Part shown: in pieces, positions 27,716 through 36,593 of the stretch
Layout: each line of letters opens with the position of its first letter
How positions within the stretch are numbered: position 1 is the stretch's first letter
Assembly: GCA_041650735.1 (NCBI GenBank)
Contig: JBAZKP010000001.1
Coordinates: 310,754 to 374,753, forward strand
Direction of reading: 5' to 3'
DNA: 64,000 nt
Origin: an archaeon
GTDB lineage: Archaea; Iainarchaeota; Iainarchaeia; Iainarchaeales; JAAZKV01
Position numbers and translations under genes: made by a program
The notes under the pieces: generated by a model
What the model was told of the DNA's origin: nothing
Databases searched by the model: none
The model's input: only the letters and a program-made list of their open reading frames with translations

Positions 27716-28402
27716 TTAGGCAGGTCGAGCAGTGAAATACATTAACATCAAAATCAAAAATACTACCATGATAATTAGTACGACTATATGCAAAAATAAT
27801 ACTGCTGCCACAGCTTTAATAGTGCTTGTGTTGTATAATTTTTTTACTACTTTTACTGATAAATACAAGCTAATTATGATGAAAATTAAAGAAGCTATTA
27901 AAGAAAATCCCATTATAATGTTTTCACTGAGGGAATAGAATGATTCATTTTCCTGGAAAGAAAGCAAAACGATACTGATAAGCAAAACAATTATTTGTAA
28001 TGGAATTGAATAAGTTAATTGAATACTTGACAAAACTTTTACTATCGCGCCCAAAGTTTTACTTAAATTGCCTTTGCACTTTAATATAGTCAAAAGGAAA
28101 TGGATGGCAAAACAATTCAAAAAATAATTTACTACAGATGAAAAAAGACCAAAGAAAATAAAAACTATAAAAAGAATAGGTAAAGTAAAATCAGTACCAT
28201 CTGAATTAACCAAGGTTGGCAAAGGCCCGAAATACATTTTGATGCTGAGAGTAGCAACGCTAATCAACACCCCCAAAAAAAGCAAACCAAGAAAAAACGG
28301 AAAATCCTTGTTAAAGTTTAAGTCTTTTAAAAACTTGTCAACAGGAACACGAAACAAGGCAAACCTTACTAAATCCTTAGCATATTTCATCATAATATTC
28401 AC
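27716..28402 (-). CDS. Yip1-like multi-pass membrane protein
   Basis: Five hydrophobic segments with spacing like the Yip1 domain (LKCKGNLSKTL, KKLYNTSTIKAVAAV). Confidence 0.6.
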   Translation of the reverse strand: MNIMMKYAKDLVRFALFRVPVDKFLKDLNFNKDFPFFLGLLFLGVLISVATLSIKMYFGPLPTLVNSDGTDFTLPILFIVFIFFGLFSSVVNYFLNCFAIHFLLTILKCKGNLSKTLGAIVKVLSSIQLTYSIPLQIIVLLISIVLLSFQENESFYSLSENIIMGFSLIASLIFIIISLYLSVKVVKKLYNTSTIKAVAAVLFLHIVVLIIMVVFLILMLMYFTARPA

Positions 28403-28923: not shown

Positions 28924-29544
28924 CTAATTTATCCTTGGATATGCTGTTTTTATTGCCGAATCTGTGGTATCAAAGGTTATTATTCTTACATCTATTTCTT
29001 TTTTTAAAGATGGCGAATAGACTTTTTTAACTAGCCTATAAGGGTCGGTTGGGTCTTTGGAAGCAGTTTTTGCTACGTTTTTTATGAAATCTTTAACTGC
29101 TTGATCTTCGTTTGCAAGATTAAAATATTTTTTAAAGTCTGCAGGATGCTTCCCAGCGACAATATGTTTCCATCCACCTTCACTTAAATCAATAACAGTT
29201 GATTCTTCCAGCCAAAGAGTTTGTGTGGCCCCTTTTGTAACGAAATGAGTTGAATCAAGTTTTGCACCTTTTTTAAGTGCTGTTTCCAGCATTTCGTTTG
29301 TTGCTCCAGCATTTTTTAGTTTAATAATTACTGTTTCTCCTTTGGTTGTGAACCATTTTGCTAGGTGTGTTGTGTTTGTTGTTATTCCTTTGCCTAAAAA
29401 ATCTACTTTCATTATTCCTAGTTCTGTTGCTCTTGCGATTCTTGTTCCTGAAATGGCTTCTTTTATTCCAAAAAAAGTCAAGTTAAGGGTTTTACCAATT
29501 TTTGATAATTTGGATAATGAGTTAACTATTTTGAATGCTTTGGC
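28924..29544 (-). pseudogene. Orphan toxin cassette: pre-toxin homology region plus alternative RNase-like tip, no clear start
   Basis: Frame open from 29544 (AKAFKIVNSLSKLSKIG) right after an in-frame TAA; matches residues of the 871-aa protein, then diverges to GGWKHIVAGKH...IKTAYP. Confidence 0.75.
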
Positions 29545-29545
29545 T
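29283..29545 (-). repeat. 263-bp copy of the toxin pre-tip region (partner 31233-31495)
   Basis: Ungapped alignment at offset 1950; about 69/87 aa identical by hand; includes an exact stretch of about 46 bp and one of about 35 bp. Confidence 0.9.
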
Positions 29546-29568: not shown

Positions 29569-30009
29569 TTAAAAGCCATTTGTCCATTTAGTAAAATGCA
29601 GATTTATTCTTCCGGTTGCTTCTATCCACGCCCCTTTTTTAATATTTTTTTCAGTGGCTTTTATTTCAATTGGAAACCCGCAATCCAAAATTATTTTGTC
29701 TTCTGATTTATCCATTACTTGCCCAACAAGTTTGTATTGATTAACACTATTGGCATGTTTTTGAAGGTCAATGATTTTCTTTGTTCCATTTTTGTTTTTT
29801 TCAATTTGGAGACACATAAAGTCAAGAGAAATGTTAACATTAGATCCAATTTCTATATTTTTTATTTCTTGAATATCAAAATAATCGACAAAACACTTAA
29901 TTTTCTGACCTGTTTTTGCTTCGATAACTGCATTAGCTTCAGCGTCCTGCCATGCAGAAATTCTAAAATCCAAAAGTCTTGCCGCCCACCATTTATTCAT
30001 CATAATCAC
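29569..30009 (-). CDS. Putative immunity protein 2
   Basis: Overlaps the stop of the preceding tip (GTGA); IKCFVD, NQYKLVGQV, ILDCGF and GRINL motifs shared with paralogues. Confidence 0.65.
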   Translation of the reverse strand: MIMMNKWWAARLLDFRISAWQDAEANAVIEAKTGQKIKCFVDYFDIQEIKNIEIGSNVNISLDFMCLQIEKNKNGTKKIIDLQKHANSVNQYKLVGQVMDKSEDKIILDCGFPIEIKATEKNIKKGAWIEATGRINLHFTKWTNGF

Positions 30010-30785
30010 TCAGGAAATGCTGATATTACCCGCCCCTCAGTTTTTCTTGCTGTATCGGAACTCATTATCACTCGGATATTTTTTTCTATTCCATTTATTG
30101 TTACTCGTTTTTCAACCATATACTTACCATTAGAGTTATCACATATTGTGCCAGTTTTCAGTACATCTTCAATTACCTTTTTTACTGCTAAATCATTGTT
30201 AGCTAGCTTTAACGCGCTTTTAATATCATTATTATAATTATTAAACACAATATGCTTCCAGCCTAATTCATTGGTTGTTAGATTCACTTCCCAAAGTTTT
30301 GAAGCTTTCAATAAGCCCCCCAAAGATGACTTAATCTTATCTCCACAATATTTTCTATAAATTCCCCAGTTTTGGTGGTCAAGATACAAATCTATTCTTA
30401 CAATGGATTCCACATAATTCCCGACTTTTGCATTACAAAATCCATTTATCCCTATAATGAACCCGCATTCAATGAGCATTCGGTCTCCCTTTTTCTCAAT
30501 CACTTGTCCCACAAGTTTGTATTTGTTTACCGTAGGAGGGTGAGAAAGTTTTGTTATAGAGTTTACTGCTTGCTTAGCAAGCTCTATACTAAAAGGCATT
30601 GCGAATAGTCTAACCTTAATTTTTCCTTTTGGCTTCAAGGCAAGAAATTTTTCCGTTTCACTCGTGTCTAAAAAACATTCTATTTCATTTCCATTTACCT
30701 TAATTATTGCCTCACCTTCAGCATTTTGAAACGCTTTTGATTTGTATGAAAGAAGCTTGACAGTAATTGATTTTTTTAAAGACAT
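30006..30785 (-). CDS. Putative immunity protein 1 fused in frame to a degenerate second toxin tip
   Basis: N-terminal about 140 aa is in the immunity family (IECFLD, NKYKLVGQV, IECGF, VRIDL); C-terminal about 85 aa aligns ungapped to the toxin tip (ALKLANNDLAVK, SSDTxRKTEGR) but QKHH is replaced by NNYN. Confidence 0.75.
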   Translation of the reverse strand: MSLKKSITVKLLSYKSKAFQNAEGEAIIKVNGNEIECFLDTSETEKFLALKPKGKIKVRLFAMPFSIELAKQAVNSITKLSHPPTVNKYKLVGQVIEKKGDRMLIECGFIIGINGFCNAKVGNYVESIVRIDLYLDHQNWGIYRKYCGDKIKSSLGGLLKASKLWEVNLTTNELGWKHIVFNNYNNDIKSALKLANNDLAVKKVIEDVLKTGTICDNSNGKYMVEKRVTINGIEKNIRVIMSSDTARKTEGRVISAFPE

Positions 30786-30861: not shown

Positions 30862-33477
30862 TTATGAAGTGGGGTGAAATGCAGTAATTATTCTACCCTC
30901 AGTTTTTCTTGTTGTATCGGAACTTACTATTACTCTTATGTCTTTTGTTAGACCATTTCTTGAAATTTTTGCAAGAATTTCATATTTACCATCTAGATTT
31001 TTAACAATAGTGCCTGTTTTTACCGCTTCATAAATTACTTCTTTTACAGCTAAATCATTATTAGCCAATTTCAGAGCTTTTTGTATTTCATTATGGTGCT
31101 TTTGAAATAATATGTGCCCCCATCCCCACCCATCTGCTTTGGCAATTCCATCCCCTAGGTAAGCAGTTCCTTTTTGCCAGTTGAATACATGTATAGTTTT
31201 ATTTAAAATTGTACTTCCTTTAGTAATTACTATTTCCAGCATTTCGTTTGTTGCTCCAGCATTTTTTAGTTTAATAATTGCTGTTTCTCCTTTGGTTGCG
31301 AACCATTCTGCCAAGTTTTCTGTGGTTGTTGTTATTCCTTTTCCTAAAAAATCTACTTTCATTATTCCTAGTTCTGTACCTCTAGCGATTATTGTGCCGC
31401 TGACAGGTTTTGCAACTCCTTTGAAGAACAAGTTCATTCCCGTGCCAATTTTTGATAATTTTGATAATGAGTTTACTATTTTGAATGCTTTGGCTCCGTC
31501 GCTCAGGAAGGCAAGAACTTTGGCTGCTTTTGCTGCGGCGCCAAGTTCTGTTCCGCCTACAGGTTCAATCATTATTACTGTGGAAACAACATCAAAACCA
31601 CAGCCAAGAGTAAGAATTCCATCATCAATGCAAGAACCAATGGTTATGAGTTTAGCGCCCTCTATTCCTGCTTCTATGGTGAACGCAGCCCAATCAATAT
31701 CCGTGAACTCGAAAGGAATTATTGTGGAATCACATGAATCAGCATAAGCTAAATCAGCTTTGTCTTCTGAATTAAGTGCTAAACCAGTTTTTGTGATTTG
31801 CATTTCTTGTATTTTGTAGGCTTTGGCCATTGCGTTTGAACAAGTGTTTCCGACATTAATCCTAACCCAGTTAGCGGTTATGGTCCATCCTGTAGTGGTT
31901 TTTACATATGGTGCAACATATATTGCGCAAACACCTTTTTTTGAAGAAACCATTGCGGCATAATTGCTTGAAGAATTAAGTTTTCCAGTAATTTTTATTG
32001 CATCACTCTTATCGCTTTTGTATGCAAAATAAATCCCTGTTTCGTTTACCCCTCCTTCTATGTTCCACTCAATAGAACCAACATAACCAACATCAATGCT
32101 TGAAGTATAATTAGTAACATGAACATCTCCAGGGACATAAGTGCATGAGCCATTATTGCACCCCCCTCCTTTGCAATCCTGTTTCAAATCTTCTTTTTGG
32201 TTACAAGAATTATACCAATAAGCGTTACCATTATAGCAAGCAGAGTAAAAGTGAGAAGTACATGTAGGAGTGGAATTACATGTTCCATTAGAACAACCCT
32301 TTCCTTGGCAATTCTGGACCAAGGATTCTTCTACCTGGCTATTTGAATAACAGTTATCACTACTGCATCCTTTTGAGAGATTTGTTCGTTGTTTATACAC
32401 GTTACCGCTTTTACAGTAATTTGCTCCCCAGCTTCCCGTTGAAGAAGAACCGCATTCATTTTTCTTGCTCTCTCTTTGGTTACAGGAATTATACCAATAA
32501 ACATCCTTGTTATAGCACTGGTAATATTCATGAGAATAACAACTAGGAGAATAATCACACGCTCCATCAGTACAACCGTTTCCCTCGCAATCTTGAATAA
32601 AATTTGTTTCAGAATCATCATTTGAATAACATGCATTATTACTACAACCCCTAGAAATATTTGTTAACCGCTCATAAACATTTCCATTGGAACAAAAAGA
32701 TTCCCACCATTCTCCCTGCTCGGATTCCCCACAGTCTTGCTTTATTTCTTCCATTTGGTTGCATGAATCAAACCAATACAAATCATTGCCAGAACAAGAA
32801 GAATAAGCATGAGAAGTGCATGAAGGAGAAGAATTACATAAACCATTTGAACAACCTTTGTCTTCACAATCCTGAACTCTTGTTTCCTCTATCTGCCTAT
32901 TTGAGAAACACGCTCCATTGCTACATCCTTTAGAAATATTTGTTCTCTGTTTGTAAACATCCCCGTTTTTACAATAATTTTCACTCCAATAACCAGTGAA
33001 AGGGTTTCCGCAATCCTCTACTTCTTTCCAATAATAAAAAAACCCGCACTCGGGAGAAGAAACATAAGAACCAACATATCTTTTTGGGTTACCAATCCCG
33101 CAAGTATAAACACCAGAATCAGTAAAATTTATTCCGAGAGAAACCAAATCAGTTCCTGCAATAGAAGCACAATCACAAGTGCTTGATTGGCATGGTTTTA
33201 CACAGCCAACCAAATTATTTGAAGCAGCATAACAAGTGTAACCATAAGCTCCGCCGCAATCAACAGAACCCTCAGCACTAGCCATGGAAGAACCATTGCA
33301 CCAAACATTGCCTGAAGAAGAAACAGCATAATTCACATGATAAAAAGTCCCATTCAGGTTCATAACCTCATTTTTAGGAATCCCTATTGCGGAAGAAGCA
33401 AATGAAAAAGAAAAAAGAAAACACAAGAATAAAAATAAGAAAGAAATTTTATTAAAATTTGATTTAATTGAACGCAC
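30862..33477 (-). CDS. Secreted polymorphic-toxin-like protein: signal peptide, Cys-rich repeats, beta-sandwich, hydrophobic pre-toxin region, predicted RNase tip
   Basis: GTG start and Sec signal; 93-aa Cys repeats; CGFDVVS...EPVGG...AKAAK pre-toxin segment; C-terminal GWGHILFQKH...GRIITAF resembling BECR/EndoU-type toxin tips. Confidence 0.75.
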   Translation of the reverse strand: MRSIKSNFNKISFLFLFLCFLFSFSFASSAIGIPKNEVMNLNGTFYHVNYAVSSSGNVWCNGSSMASAEGSVDCGGAYGYTCYAASNNLVGCVKPCQSSTCDCASIAGTDLVSLGINFTDSGVYTCGIGNPKRYVGSYVSSPECGFFYYWKEVEDCGNPFTGYWSENYCKNGDVYKQRTNISKGCSNGACFSNRQIEETRVQDCEDKGCSNGLCNSSPSCTSHAYSSCSGNDLYWFDSCNQMEEIKQDCGESEQGEWWESFCSNGNVYERLTNISRGCSNNACYSNDDSETNFIQDCEGNGCTDGACDYSPSCYSHEYYQCYNKDVYWYNSCNQRESKKNECGSSSTGSWGANYCKSGNVYKQRTNLSKGCSSDNCYSNSQVEESLVQNCQGKGCSNGTCNSTPTCTSHFYSACYNGNAYWYNSCNQKEDLKQDCKGGGCNNGSCTYVPGDVHVTNYTSSIDVGYVGSIEWNIEGGVNETGIYFAYKSDKSDAIKITGKLNSSSNYAAMVSSKKGVCAIYVAPYVKTTTGWTITANWVRINVGNTCSNAMAKAYKIQEMQITKTGLALNSEDKADLAYADSCDSTIIPFEFTDIDWAAFTIEAGIEGAKLITIGSCIDDGILTLGCGFDVVSTVIMIEPVGGTELGAAAKAAKVLAFLSDGAKAFKIVNSLSKLSKIGTGMNLFFKGVAKPVSGTIIARGTELGIMKVDFLGKGITTTTENLAEWFATKGETAIIKLKNAGATNEMLEIVITKGSTILNKTIHVFNWQKGTAYLGDGIAKADGWGWGHILFQKHHNEIQKALKLANNDLAVKEVIYEAVKTGTIVKNLDGKYEILAKISRNGLTKDIRVIVSSDTTRKTEGRIITAFHPTS
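31233..31495 (-). repeat. Pre-tip region of the full-length toxin, duplicated at 29283-29545
   Basis: Direct DNA comparison of the two segments. Confidence 0.9.
32140..33015 (-). repeat. About three tandem 279-bp (93-aa) Cys-rich repeats
   Basis: TNISKGC/TNISRGC/TNLSKGC recur at 32929, 32650 and 32371 (279-bp period); CxSHxYxxC...YWxxSCNQ in each. Confidence 0.9.
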
Positions 33478-33523
33478 AATTAGAATTTCTGTTAAAGGGA
33501 TTAATATACTCTTGGTAGAAATT

Positions 33524-33566
33524 TTATCAACCTGCAGGTTGATAATTTTACAACCAAAAAGTTGAT
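33524..33566. promoter_or_regulatory. Perfect 22-bp palindrome plus second CAAC-N6-GTTG site upstream of the toxin promoter
   Basis: TTATCAACCTGCAGGTTGATAA at 33524-33545; ACAAC-caaaaa-GTTGAT at 33550-33566; TATA-like TATATTAA (minus) at about 33501-33508. Confidence 0.55.
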
Positions 33567-33673
33567 TTTTTAAAAAGGAAAAAATCTGAAGTAAAAGATT
33601 CTTTTTATAAGTTTTAATAGTTTTCTTGTTAAAAATTTTTTTAATTAAAGTTTTGCAAAATAATTTTTTAGAG

Positions 33674-34324
33674 TTATTCTTTTGTCCATTTTTGCATTTC
33701 TTTCAAAGCTTTTTCTGTTTCATCTAATTCAGATAATTTTTCTTCAAGGTCCTTTACCTGTTTATCAGCAGCACCCATTCTAAATCCCTTTAAATCATCA
33801 GCGAACTGCGCAACTTTCTTATTTTTTTTGTAAATAATTGAAGTGTTAACAGTTTCAGTTAATTGTTTCCTGTACTCAATATCATTAACAAACATTTTCA
33901 CCATTGGCTGCCACTTTTTATCAGAAACAAGATGTGCAGGAAGCTTTACTGAATCAGCGTCTTTTCTGTAATCAGAATCAATCATGCTCTTAGCAACATG
34001 CTTCCAGTACAAAGGCTCAGCAAGTTTTTTTACTTGGTGGACCTGATGATACATTGAAGCGGAAAAATGCTGGTGTTTCCACTGGCCCAATTTTTGGGAA
34101 TAAATTTTTTTTTTCTCCCTAAGCTCTTTCAATTTTGAATCAATTACGCCAGAATTAGGGTACGAAAGCTGGGGCCATTCTTTTCCATTATCATGAGCCT
34201 TTACAACCCCATTAACCGCAAGATAATGCTCTAAGGCTTTTCTTCTCTCCCCGTTCTTAGGTGCTTTAGGAAAAGTTTTTTCAAAATCCTTAATGGAAGC
34301 AACAACCCCGTGCATACAACTCAC
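33674..34324 (-). CDS. Hypothetical protein with C-terminal coiled coil
   Basis: 216-aa ORF with ordinary composition; no recognised motif. Confidence 0.65.
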   Translation of the reverse strand: MSCMHGVVASIKDFEKTFPKAPKNGERRKALEHYLAVNGVVKAHDNGKEWPQLSYPNSGVIDSKLKELREKKKIYSQKLGQWKHQHFSASMYHQVHQVKKLAEPLYWKHVAKSMIDSDYRKDADSVKLPAHLVSDKKWQPMVKMFVNDIEYRKQLTETVNTSIIYKKNKKVAQFADDLKGFRMGAADKQVKDLEEKLSELDETEKALKEMQKWTKE

Positions 34325-34415
34325 TCAAAAAATTTTAGGCAAAATAACGCAATATGAGTAAGGAGTTGAAGCTTAAAAAGGTTTTCAAACAGAAAAATGA
34401 TTACAAGGTGAATAA

Positions 34416-34748
34416 ATGTTTCCAGGAGGAGTAAATCCAAAACAAATGAACCAAATGATGAAGCAATTTGGGATAAAAAATGAAGAAATCAATGCAAAAG
34501 AAGTAACTATTTTGCTTACCAACGGAAAAAAACTGATTTTCAGCAATCCCCAAGTAACAAGCATCTCAATGAGGGGAACAAAAACATACACAATTGCAGG
34601 AGAAGCAAAAGAAGAAAGTGGAGTACCTGAAGAAGATATTGCAATGGTTGCAGAGCAAACAAATGTCTCAAAAGAAAAAGCAAAAAAAGCATTGGAAGAA
34701 GCAAACGGGGATATAGCAGAAGCAATACTAAAAATAAAAAAAGAATAA
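34416..34748 (+). CDS. nac: Nascent polypeptide-associated complex protein (archaeal NAC)
   Basis: NPKQMNQMMKQFGI NAC domain; C-terminal UBA-like EEDIAMVAEQT...ALEEANGDIAEAIL. Confidence 0.92.
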   Translation: MFPGGVNPKQMNQMMKQFGIKNEEINAKEVTILLTNGKKLIFSNPQVTSISMRGTKTYTIAGEAKEESGVPEEDIAMVAEQTNVSKEKAKKALEEANGDIAEAILKIKKE

Positions 34749-34804
34749 AAAAATCTTTTTAATTTTTATTGAAAAATAAGGTTATTTTTTGTTTCTAAAA
34801 TAGT

Positions 34805-35551
34805 TTATGAATTATTATCAGCGCTTGGTGTATTTGAATCAATCAATGCATTTTGGTCAATCTGTAATTGATTTATATAATCCTCTAATTGTTTTGTTTG
34901 AGTCTTATTTTCTTTCTCAATCAATTCCAAAGCAAGAATAGCTTTTCCCTGAACCTTAATAGAGCCCTCAACAACAAGTTCATCCCCAGATTGAGTGGTT
35001 ATATTTGATAAAGCAGATAAAGTTGAATTAGGGAAAGAAAAATTTCTATCAATATTCAAATCAGCATTGTAAAGCATAACACTGCTAGGAGAAGAAATAG
35101 AAATATATTTCATTGCCTCAAAACCCTGTTCTTTATCAAAAAAATTAATATCAGAAATATTTTGGGCAACAGAAGAAACATCAAAACCTTTCTTCAAAGA
35201 AATTTCAGCAATGTAAACCCATTGGTTAGCATCAGCACTTGTTTTCTTGAACTGGGAAGAAACTTTTGAAACACCCTCAACTTTCAAAACATTCTCATCA
35301 ATCTCAGCTTTATTTGTATGAGAAGTCATTGCCCCCACCCTTATGGAAGAAAGTTCTTTCAAAGCAATAGTATCAAAAGACAAAGAATAAGTAAAAGCAT
35401 TTTCCGTAGGAGAAGGAAGTTGATCTCCTGTATCAGTATTATTTCCTTTATCAACATAAAGCAGGCCCATGGCAAGCATACTCAAAGCCATTACTGCGAC
35501 AACAAACAAACCAAGAAACCTTACAATCTGGGATTTATCCATAAAAACCAA
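34805..35551 (-). CDS. Hypothetical N-terminally anchored protein
   Basis: N-terminal TM then polar extracellular region. Confidence 0.65.
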   Translation of the reverse strand: MVFMDKSQIVRFLGLFVVAVMALSMLAMGLLYVDKGNNTDTGDQLPSPTENAFTYSLSFDTIALKELSSIRVGAMTSHTNKAEIDENVLKVEGVSKVSSQFKKTSADANQWVYIAEISLKKGFDVSSVAQNISDINFFDKEQGFEAMKYISISSPSSVMLYNADLNIDRNFSFPNSTLSALSNITTQSGDELVVEGSIKVQGKAILALELIEKENKTQTKQLEDYINQLQIDQNALIDSNTPSADNNS

Positions 35552-35663
35552 TAATAAAATAGTCGGCGCTATACGTTTAAAAACCTTAAACAGCTACTTT
35601 TTCTTTAGAAAGTTACTAGCAAAATGCTAGTAATAATAATGTATATAATATAAGGGTGGGCTG

Positions 35664-36593
35664 ATGGCTGAAAAGAAAAGAAAAATGGTTAGCGTGAACT
35701 TCATAGGAAAAGAATTACTTGAAAACAGAGTATTTGATACAACACTTGAAGAAGAAGCAAAAAAAGCAGGAATCTTTGAAGAAAAAAGAAAATACGCTCC
35801 CCTGAATGTAATACTTGGCGAAAAAGAATTATTAGAACAAGTAGAAAAAGAATTAGAAGAAATGAAAGAAGGAGAAAAAAGAATAACAAAAATGCTTGCA
35901 AAAAATGCTTTTGGGGAAAGAGACGCAAGATTGGTAAGAGTAGTGCCATTACAAAACTTTTTAGAACAAAAAATAAATCCATTTCCAGGATTAGTTGTAA
36001 GAATAGCAAACGCAATGGGAAAAGTACAAAGCGTAAGCTCAGGAAGAGTAAGAATAGATTTCAACAACCCATTAGCAGGAAGAGACATAGAATACCACAT
36101 AGAGTTAGTAAAAGAAATAAAAAACAAAAAAGAAATTGCTGAAAAAATATACGAAAAATATTACTCAAGAATACCAGGAACACAAAAAGAATATTCTGAA
36201 GGCAAATTAACTATTACAGCAACAGGAGATTTTTTGAAAAATCTGGAAAAAGTAAACGAAGCAATAAAAGGAATAGCAAAAGACTTTGATTTAGAACTAG
36301 AATTCAAAGAAATAAAAGTTACTGGAAAAGAAATAAAAGAAACTGCTTCAGTAGAAGAACACGTGCACGGACCAAATTGCAATCACGAACACGAAGAACA
36401 AGCTGCTGTAAAACAAGAAAAAGTTTTAGAAAAAACTGATACAGAAATAACAGGAAAAAAATTAGAGACAAAAGAAAAAAGCATTAACCAAATAGCAAAA
36501 GATATTGTAAAAGAAAAAAAAGGAACAGCACAATTCGATGTAACAAGAGACTCCTCAACAACAATACAAAGACCAAAGAAAAAAACAAAATAA
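35664..36593 (+). CDS. FKBP-type peptidyl-prolyl isomerase (long SlyD-like) with His/Cys metal-binding segment
   Basis: FDTT, AFGERD, IDFNNPLAGR motifs; EEHVHGPNCNHEH and charged tail. Confidence 0.85.
   Translation: MAEKKRKMVSVNFIGKELLENRVFDTTLEEEAKKAGIFEEKRKYAPLNVILGEKELLEQVEKELEEMKEGEKRITKMLAKNAFGERDARLVRVVPLQNFLEQKINPFPGLVVRIANAMGKVQSVSSGRVRIDFNNPLAGRDIEYHIELVKEIKNKKEIAEKIYEKYYSRIPGTQKEYSEGKLTITATGDFLKNLEKVNEAIKGIAKDFDLELEFKEIKVTGKEIKETASVEEHVHGPNCNHEHEEQAAVKQEKVLEKTDTEITGKKLETKEKSINQIAKDIVKEKKGTAQFDVTRDSSTTIQRPKKKTK

Follow-up and report, generated by a model that had tools for sequence, protein, structure and literature searches.

The 64,000-nucleotide (nt) stretch of contig JBAZKP010000001.1 analyzed here (positions 310,754–374,753 of the forward strand; hereafter the window, in whose numbering positions are given unless another locus is named) contains at 28924–29545 what is probably the orphan cassette of a previously undescribed polymorphic toxin–immunity system in a DPANN-type archaeon. 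This orphan has no start codon, Shine–Dalgarno (SD) sequence or signal peptide, yet it keeps a boundary motif and upstream homology to a complete main gene nearby. The array to which it belongs comprises one carrier, three C-terminal tips (CT1–CT3) and three immunity genes (Imm1–Imm3), and it is the sole such locus in the 984-kb genome. Every gene of the array lies on the minus strand, in the order carrier–CT1, Imm1 fused to CT2, Imm2, a start-less "handle" plus CT3, Imm3, and a gene for a Yip1-domain protein. The handle is the 87-codon part of the orphan that repeats the pre-toxin region of the carrier.

The repeat shared by the orphan and the carrier gene

An earlier note on this DNA had aligned 29283–29545 without gaps to 31233–31495, with about 69 of 87 residues identical and exact runs of about 46 and 35 bp. 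The codon comparison of 29544–29284 with 31494–31234 reproduced this closely. The ungapped alignment has 217 identical bases out of 261 (83.1%) and 69 identical residues out of 87, and its exact runs are 47 bp (29329–29283) and 35 bp (29427–29393), followed by runs of 20, 18, 17 and 16 bp. The repeat finder reported the same relationship in two pieces, 29267–29448 versus 31217–31398 (182 nt, 89%) and 29495–29545 versus 31445–31495 (51 nt, 96%), both with a spacing of exactly 1950 bp. Since 1950 bp corresponds to 650 codons, both copies share one reading frame. As the note had also described, the homology begins abruptly after an in-frame stop: it starts at 29545, immediately after a TAA, and the 24 nt separating the Imm2 stop codon from the handle contain three in-frame stops. 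At the other end, identity in successive 30-nt blocks falls from 27/30 to 12/30 and 7/30 after ...NEMLE.

The duplication was recovered in independent assemblies. A 209-kb contig from ENA (L035) matches 12.4 kb of the window, with the entire array, at 100% identity. Two Logan contigs of SRR8542065 cover 31262–29398 and 29312–22523, each likewise at 100%. Their starts are equivalent positions within the 47-bp exact run (31262 − 1950 = 29312), and a break inside this run is expected because a real repeat splits the de Bruijn graph. These contigs back both continuations, CT1 and CT3, beyond the shared 47-mer.

The orphan cassette

The CT3 orphan has an open frame of 206 codons, in a genome rich in AT. 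Tips of the family conserve one invariant His and near-invariant Trp, His, Asn and Lys residues, and CT3 retains W125, H127, H133, N145, K151 and P203. The view of the earlier note that the orphan has neither ATG nor SD held up: stop codons lie directly upstream, and inspection of the sequence before the candidate start TTG 29481 revealed no GGTG-type SD. Imm3 and the 259-aa open reading frame (ORF) containing Imm1 each have GGTG 5–8 nt before their ATG. The orphan is thus presumably not translated on its own. Imm3 starts 8 nt after the CT3 stop codon, and the cassette, which includes the spacer and handle besides CT3 and Imm3, occupies ~1.15 kb between Imm2 and the Yip1 leader.

The carrier and the EMLE boundary

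The carrier has a signal-peptide-like N-terminus, Cys-rich repeats, a beta-rich domain, a segment with the motif TIGSC, the pre-toxin region and CT1, and is predicted to be exported by the Sec pathway. Its last ~210 residues form a conserved pre-toxin region ending in a helix with the sequence ...GATNEMLE, followed by a variable tip of ~120 aa. The closest relative found, L006 (carrier protein P0002; ~81% DNA identity), is syntenic, with a carrier, one immunity gene and Yip1, and has no orphans. The two carriers are identical at 119 of 120 positions over residues 629–748 and at 74 of 119 (62%) after EMLE, which indicates that the tip was replaced or diverged fast while the pre-toxin region was constrained. 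Within this stretch, in the main copy of the repeat (residues 662–748), there are 10 synonymous and one non-synonymous codon changes (ratio of non-synonymous to synonymous substitution rates, dN/dS, ~0.02), a value that points to strong purifying constraint at the protein level. CT1 is 59–64% identical to the other main tips of its type (L006, L007 and L010). Across the family, the sequence up to "..AI.RLKG.GATNEMLE" is common and is then followed by at least three types of tip. The placing of the carrier/tip boundary at EMLE by the earlier note therefore agrees with both the L006 comparison and the family-wide switch of tips. Its statement that homology ends there stood only in part: identity does collapse after EMLE, but CT1 and CT3 are not unrelated, being 37% identical beyond it with the same predicted fold. 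A conserved internal SD and ATG at GATNEM was considered as the cause of the motif conservation and rejected; L010 encodes the same peptide with other codons and has no GGAG.

Two further features of the carrier were observed. In 31600–31700 (residues ~600–650 of the main protein), ~60 residues upstream of the handle region, lies the motif F/L-T-I-G-S-C-(I/L)-D-(D/E)-G-...-C-(A/G)-(F/L)-D, which reads TIGSCIDDG..C in the main carrier. It is strongly conserved in almost all carriers (P0003–P0020), whatever their N-terminal domains, and may mark a site of processing or release, or form a disulfide knot. A transmembrane anchor at TIGSC.DDG...C, which would leave the tip cytoplasmic, was judged unlikely from its charged residues and paired Cys. 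The Cys-rich repeats number three to four, each of 93 aa with a period of 279 nt. Within 32173–33015, L006 is missing 45 residues of these repeats (402–446 of the main protein), and close strains thus differ in the number of repeats.

Predicted structure and activity of the tip

AlphaFold2 models were confident for both the 206-aa orphan (predicted local distance difference test, pLDDT, 89.4; predicted template-modeling score, pTM, 0.86) and the 139-aa tip unit (pLDDT 93.7, pTM 0.89). In the orphan model, the handle folds as a beta-hairpin and helices, and the third helix of a small helical bundle contains EMLE. The tip model combines a beta-hairpin with three helices and an antiparallel sheet of four strands. 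The best structural matches from Foldseek were 6cp8 and 6vek (CdiA-CT of E. coli 3006), which are not significant (E 0.08–0.09, probability 0.63–0.66, template-modeling (TM) score 0.29). Nsp15 EndoU and BrnT were weaker, and phage polyvalent-protein domains were also among the top hits. The top matches in both structure libraries were recurrently RNase toxins of the Barnase-EndoU-ColicinE5/D-RelE (BECR) type, none of them significant. The tip resembles BECR-fold RNases (CdiA-CT EC3006, BrnT/RelE, EndoU/Nsp15 and PBECR) in having helices followed by a four-stranded antiparallel sheet and a conserved His/His/Lys set; all matches are non-significant (E ≥ 0.08, TM ≤ 0.35), and the tip is at most a candidate member of this group.

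Profile searches did not place the tips or their partners. Pfam and NCBIfam scans of six proteins of the locus recognized Yip1 alone, with no match for the carrier, tips or immunity proteins. Pfam searches with each of 17 aligned tips returned scattered chance hits only, and hidden Markov model (HMM) profiles of the tips and immunity proteins returned nothing meaningful from the PDB sequences; a match to iota-carbonic anhydrase was discarded as it covers only 20 residues. PF18809 (PBECR1) scored 20 bits in P0018 only, under the cut-off of 27.6, and had no match in the tips of this genome or in the 17 aligned tips. Filing the tips as PBECR1 was therefore rejected, the PF18809 search of their own genome having missed them. 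On the basis of the models and the conserved residues, we see balanced chances that the tip is a metal-independent RNase using H127, H133 and K151, and we assign it to no known family. The small proteins encoded downstream of the tips have no signal peptide, Pfam hit or PDB sequence match; they are probably cytoplasmic and are presumed to be immunity proteins. In that case the tip would poison cells without the matching immunity protein; indirect support for such toxicity comes from the conserved His/His/Lys set, the confident fold, the weak BECR-like matches and the loss of the invariant His in the decayed CT2.

The family and its other orphans

Among 1.84 billion cluster representatives scanned in full with HMMER, only 21 relatives were found. 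With profile searches, the module was detected in 14 of 215 representative genomes of the phylum, all in one order, and was absent from all 21 other genomes of the same genus. As far as such searches tell, the family is rare, patchily distributed and unannotated. Family carriers are 450–1416 aa long with the module at the C-terminus, and short start-less or orphan forms also occur. The N-terminal parts differ widely (NosD, BNR, PPC, NEW3 or Cys repeats). The match to several carriers begins only ~20 residues before EMLE, which suggests that the portable unit consists of the last two pre-toxin helices and the tip.

The tips fall into type A (CT1-like, ..TEGRIITAYP), type B (CT3-like, ..SAIKTAYP) and type C (..GWCFFS..NGYIVTAFP..C). 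Type C tips (P0006, P0017, P0019, P0020, P0021, L023 and L026) share the N-terminal half (GW.HI..H) and have a different C-terminal sheet. This sheet has a Cys in "GWCFFS", and most type C tips have another Cys near the C-terminus, a pattern that suggests a disulfide-stabilized variant of the same fold.

A tip is followed by a gene of the immunity family in ~20 of the 26 loci examined. Carriers bearing CT3-type tips, which the earlier note had proposed to look for in related genomes, do exist. G051, from the same order and a different family, encodes an 838-aa carrier with a CT3-type tip (48% identity over orphan residues 7–203) followed by a 137-aa ORF of the immunity family. G153 has a frame open for 1584 aa that carries a CT3-type tip, again followed by an immunity-family gene. 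Judged by these sequences, CT3 is a genuine type of carrier tip. CT3 is 65% identical to the tail of P0014, and the protein encoded by the gene after P0014 (158 aa, L037) is 40% identical to Imm3. Identities of Imm3 to the other immunity proteins aligned over their full length are 25–29% (L010i and L010i2 aligned over short pieces only). Overall, immunity proteins are 22–46% identical to each other, except for orthologous pairs, namely Imm2 and its L006 counterpart (61%) and Imm3 and the L037 protein (40%), the latter pair going with a CT3-type tip. From these comparisons, tip type and immunity type appear to travel together. In L015 (G146, 579–1514) and L011 (824–1485) two immunity-family genes stand behind one tip, and the extra ones are, by their position, orphan immunity genes without a tip.

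Orphans were found in other loci as well. L010 (SRR8426592) has a type A carrier, an immunity gene, a start-less type B frame and a second immunity gene; this orphan matches its own carrier over 57 nt at 88%, encoding the identical peptide AAIVRLTGKGATNEML. In L037 and L040, a different carrier of 978 aa with a type C tip is followed by an immunity gene and then an orphan; over 144 nt, the handle of this orphan has 75% identity to the 978-aa carrier. The orphan of L037 (3393–5193) is of type B (CT3-type) and is split by an IS3-type element (HTH_Tnp_1 and rve); the transposase separates a half of 104 aa from one of 51 aa, and downstream lies an Imm3-like gene. The split arrangement is also present in L038, L039 and L040 and comes from several samples. 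Thus, in three unrelated loci including the one described here, the orphan handle resembles the adjacent carrier (in L010 and L037, not the carrier of the present locus), as expected if orphans arise from, or are homogenized with, the local main gene.

Proposed recombination between main gene and orphan, and other explanations

The earlier note had proposed that recombination between the two copies would delete 1950 bp and place CT3 on the carrier. The geometry suits this, the repeats being direct, in the same frame and 650 codons apart, and the genome encodes RadA (325 bits). With such an arrangement of the pre-toxin copies, a crossover is feasible, and the 47- and 35-bp exact runs that they have in common are short but usable substrates. 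A RadA-mediated crossover anywhere within the 263-bp repeat would delete CT1, Imm1–CT2 and Imm2, and leave an in-frame carrier–CT3 gene followed by Imm3. Such a product would have a changed toxin and immunity specificity. Before recombination, the practical value of the cassette would probably lie in Imm3, as protection against neighbors deploying CT3-type tips. The same mechanism is known from the bacterial systems discussed below, and recombination between main gene and orphan may occur here too. The Logan contigs, which break inside the exact runs, are compatible with either the recombined or the unrecombined arrangement.

The handle is a mosaic relative to the main gene. Codons 1–17 are 94% identical with synonymous changes only, codons 18–36 (a 57-nt core) are only 51% identical, and codons 37–87 are 91.5% identical with seven non-synonymous and three synonymous changes. 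The dN/dS of the orphan handle against the main gene is 0.42, and the differences are spread over the three codon positions as 15/11/18, which is consistent with untranslated, drifting sequence. The divergent core (KTLNLTFFGIKEAISGTRIARA) is nearer to other carrier alleles, such as KTISLTVEGSKIALSGTKIARA of L007, than to its own main gene. The orphan therefore appears to be the 3′ end of another carrier allele and not a copy of the main one. At the 12 handle sites where the main gene and L006 differ, the orphan agrees with the main gene at nine and with L006 at two, a pattern that hints at some gene conversion within the genome and is not significant without an outgroup.

Several results weigh against a silent cassette of a toxin system. 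Neither confident model had a match at E ≤ 0.001 when PDB and BFVD were searched with Foldseek, and no homology to a known toxin or immunity family was detected with Pfam, NCBIfam or PDB-sequence profiles. Among the 215 representative genomes of the phylum, more than one tip is present in this genome only. A search of JGI metagenome contigs for the recombinant-junction pattern gave 0 hits, a weak result given that it used exact anchors only and that near-genome records may be left out. Finally, the relaxed constraint and the 51% core may mark the handle as a decaying relic and not a maintained recombination substrate.

The last two points lead to an explanation that we consider unlikely, namely that CT3–Imm3, like CT2, is a relic of a past module insertion or displacement that no longer serves as a reservoir, its similarity to the carrier being decaying ancestry. 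CT2 has clearly decayed: it is fused to Imm1, lacks ~25 aa after the EMLE position and has NNYN in place of the invariant His motif QKHH, and with these losses it is regarded as dead. The handle, with its high dN/dS, changes at all codon positions and divergent core, would fit the same fate, as would the empty junction search. CT3 itself does not, being open over its full 206 codons in an AT-rich genome with every conserved residue kept; Imm3 is intact with its SD, and the 47- and 35-bp exact runs persist. Moreover, this explanation overlaps with that of a recombining cassette, since a relic can still recombine.

It is improbable that the tip is not a toxin at all and instead forms a surface adhesin or recognition module, with the silent cassette providing antigenic or host-range variation and the small proteins acting as chaperones. 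DPANN cells depend on surface contact with their hosts, and this general knowledge lends the idea some appeal, as does the fact that neither sequence nor any significant structural match links the tip to a toxin. However, the tip is a compact alpha+beta domain in which one His is invariant and a Trp, a second His, an Asn and a Lys are nearly so, a pattern that suggests an active site rather than a binding surface, and the decayed CT2 has lost exactly the invariant His. The co-varying small cytoplasmic partner right after each tip is a hallmark of toxin and immunity pairs, and the weak structural matches are all to RNase toxins.

Quite improbable, too, is translation of CT3 beginning within the orphan, at TTG 29481 or at the ATG of either ..GIMKV.. 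or ..NEMLE, by which CT3 and Imm3 would form an intracellular pair of the toxin–antitoxin kind, for example one stabilizing the locus. Gene callers do predict a 185-aa ORF from TTG 29481 (P0001) and start the L010 orphan at the ATG inside NEML, and immediately before the handle there is a TATA-like stretch rich in AT. TTG 29481 nevertheless has no GGTG-type SD, unlike the real genes of the array, the L010 and L037 orphans set in at different positions in the handle and have no start in common, and all full-length examples carry these tips at the C-terminus of a long exported protein. An assembly artefact, which the earlier note had named as a possible source of the duplication and for which only the general risk in metagenome-assembled genomes speaks, has a negligible probability: the copies differ at 44 of 261 positions, their coding flanks are coherent and different, and the second assembly (L035) and both continuations in SRR8542065 confirm them.

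Layout and history of the locus

The features of the array are listed in Table 1. The neighboring genes include a Hel308-type helicase with the archaeal domain 4, a form III RuBisCO and FKBP26. Judged by this gene content and the DPANN-sized genome, the host is an archaeon of the DPANN type.

Table 1 Position and basis of assignment of the features of the presumed toxin–immunity array.
Feature	Position	Strand	Basis
Main gene, 871-aa secreted (predicted) Cys-rich carrier	30862..33477	-	ORF and translation, orthologue P0002/L006
Main copy of the 263-bp repeat, pre-toxin AKAFK...GATNEMLE, residues 662-748	31233..31495	-	Repeat comparison
Tip CT1, 123 aa, type A, end ...TEGRIITAF, plus stop codon	30862..31232	-	Tip alignment
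259-aa ORF: Imm1 (~135 aa), degenerate handle remnant and shortened CT2	30006..30785	-	Translation, repeat match
Imm2 (presumed immunity protein), 146 aa	29569..30009	-	Orthologue of the single immunity gene in L006
Orphan handle, 87 codons, no start	29283..29545	-	Repeat and codon comparison
Orphan tip CT3, 119 aa, type B, end ...SAIKTAYPRIN, plus stop codon	28924..29282	-	Intact frame, AlphaFold2
Imm3 (presumed immunity protein), 130 aa	28523..28915	-	Immunity-family member with own GGTG SD
Yip1-domain membrane protein, downstream synteny anchor	27716..28402	-	Pfam

In the 259-aa ORF, Imm1 makes up the first ~135 residues and is a member of the small-protein family found behind the tips in most loci examined, and the last ~120 residues are a degenerate handle (..KSSLGGLLKASKLWE) and the shortened CT2. 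Imm1 has no stop codon of its own and reads in frame into the degenerate handle and CT2, and the stop of this ORF overlaps the start of Imm2 (GTGA). The end of CT2 also repeats that of CT1 (30014–30100 versus 30876–30962, 77% identical). Imm2 and the L006 immunity protein are 61% identical (72% at the DNA level), whereas the L006 protein is 26–38% identical to Imm1 and Imm3. The end of the L006 tip and its immunity gene align to the end of CT2 and Imm2 with 74% DNA identity. This is about as diverged as the flanking genes, for which DNA identity to L006 is 78.5% (Yip1) and 81–82% (carrier). In L006 the conserved GAATAAATATAGGAAA of the Yip1 leader follows immediately after the immunity gene stop. 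On the simplest reading of these alignments, CT2–Imm2 would be the ancestral module of the locus; CT1–Imm1 would have entered at the main gene, truncating CT2 and leaving it fused to Imm1; and the CT3–Imm3 cassette would have been either inserted in this locus or lost in L006.

A spacer-less palindrome of 23+23 nt (TTGGTAGAAATTTTATCAACCTG / CAGGTTGATAATTTTACAACCAA, 83% complementary) lies at 33512–33557, ~35 nt 5′ of the carrier start codon. It is kept in L006, matching in both orientations, and could be an operator or the terminator of the upstream gene. Synteny with L006 is lost just upstream of it (L006 1–889 versus window 33584–36000), where L006 has an opposite-strand gene of 245 aa and the window a same-strand gene of 216 aa.

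Comparison with known systems

In contact-dependent growth inhibition (CDI), orphan cdiA-CT/cdiI modules lie downstream of the main toxin and immunity pair without translation initiation signals; they keep a demarcating motif and variable lengths of upstream homology, and some are interrupted by insertion sequences (Poole et al., 2011; PMC3150448). At the cdi locus of Y. pestis Microtus, a natural 3.5-kb deletion has fused an orphan to cdiA (PMC3150448). The locus described here is similar in the abrupt loss of identity after the motif and in the immunity gene that follows the fragment, and the interruption by an insertion sequence has its counterpart in L037. It differs in that no VENN/DUF638 motif, two-partner secretion domain, filamentous hemagglutinin repeats or CdiB was detected (Pfam and NCBIfam returned none of them for the carrier or its neighbors), in its host, an archaeon without an outer membrane, and in its motif, GATNEMLE, which lies in a helix of a small helical subdomain.

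In the Rhs system of Salmonella Typhimurium LT2, main–orphan recombination is reported to give an expressed and exported fusion and a competitive advantage (Koskiniemi et al., 2014; PMC3967940). There too, an orphan tip without a start codon lies behind the main gene and is linked to an immunity gene. The present locus has no YD repeats, PxxxxDPxGL or type VI secretion context (no Pfam hit), and recombination, demonstrated by experiment in that system, is inferred here.

For archaea, predicted polymorphic toxin loci have been described in which C-terminal toxin domains sit on longer proteins next to small genes, including colicin D and PD-DExK toxin loci and DUF4157 signature proteases (Makarova et al., 2019; PMC6393860). 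The family reported here has none of these signature domains by Pfam and NCBIfam. The carrier, tip and immunity families appear to match nothing described, although they may be listed in Makarova et al. (2019; mBio 10:e00715-19). By sequence comparison, the locus has the layout of bacterial orphan toxin cassettes and is built from unrelated protein families.

Neisseria MafB is reportedly a toxin with a Sec signal peptide, a polymorphic C-terminus, immunity genes and silent downstream cassettes of C-termini and immunity genes. MafB is bacterial and, judged by the absence of any Pfam hit here, unrelated in sequence.

A wider picture is conceivable, though we hold it to be rather doubtful: an archaeal-only toxin family restricted to one order, with its own pre-toxin module marked by the GATNEMLE helix and a new RNase-like fold and immunity fold, Sec-exported without a known bacterial delivery machine, which DPANN episymbionts would use against kin in competition for hosts and re-arm by RadA recombination with silent cassettes.

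To our knowledge, antagonism among archaea is poorly documented, and we know of almost nothing for DPANN archaea with their genomes of ~1 Mb. The principle of a main gene with silent cassettes is already established in CDI, Rhs and Maf, so the present finding extends this principle rather than changes it. It would mean that this bacterial logic has arisen in, or been transferred to, archaea with unrelated parts. The interest lies mainly in the DPANN host and in the new tip, immunity and pre-toxin families; the locus offers a new immunity family, a module boundary defined at EMLE and a compact new tip domain of ~120 aa, modeled with confidence and with His/His/Lys as candidate residues. About 5 kb of this genome is given to one carrier, three tips and three immunity genes, and an investment of this size suggests that competition with kin matters even for ultra-small episymbionts.

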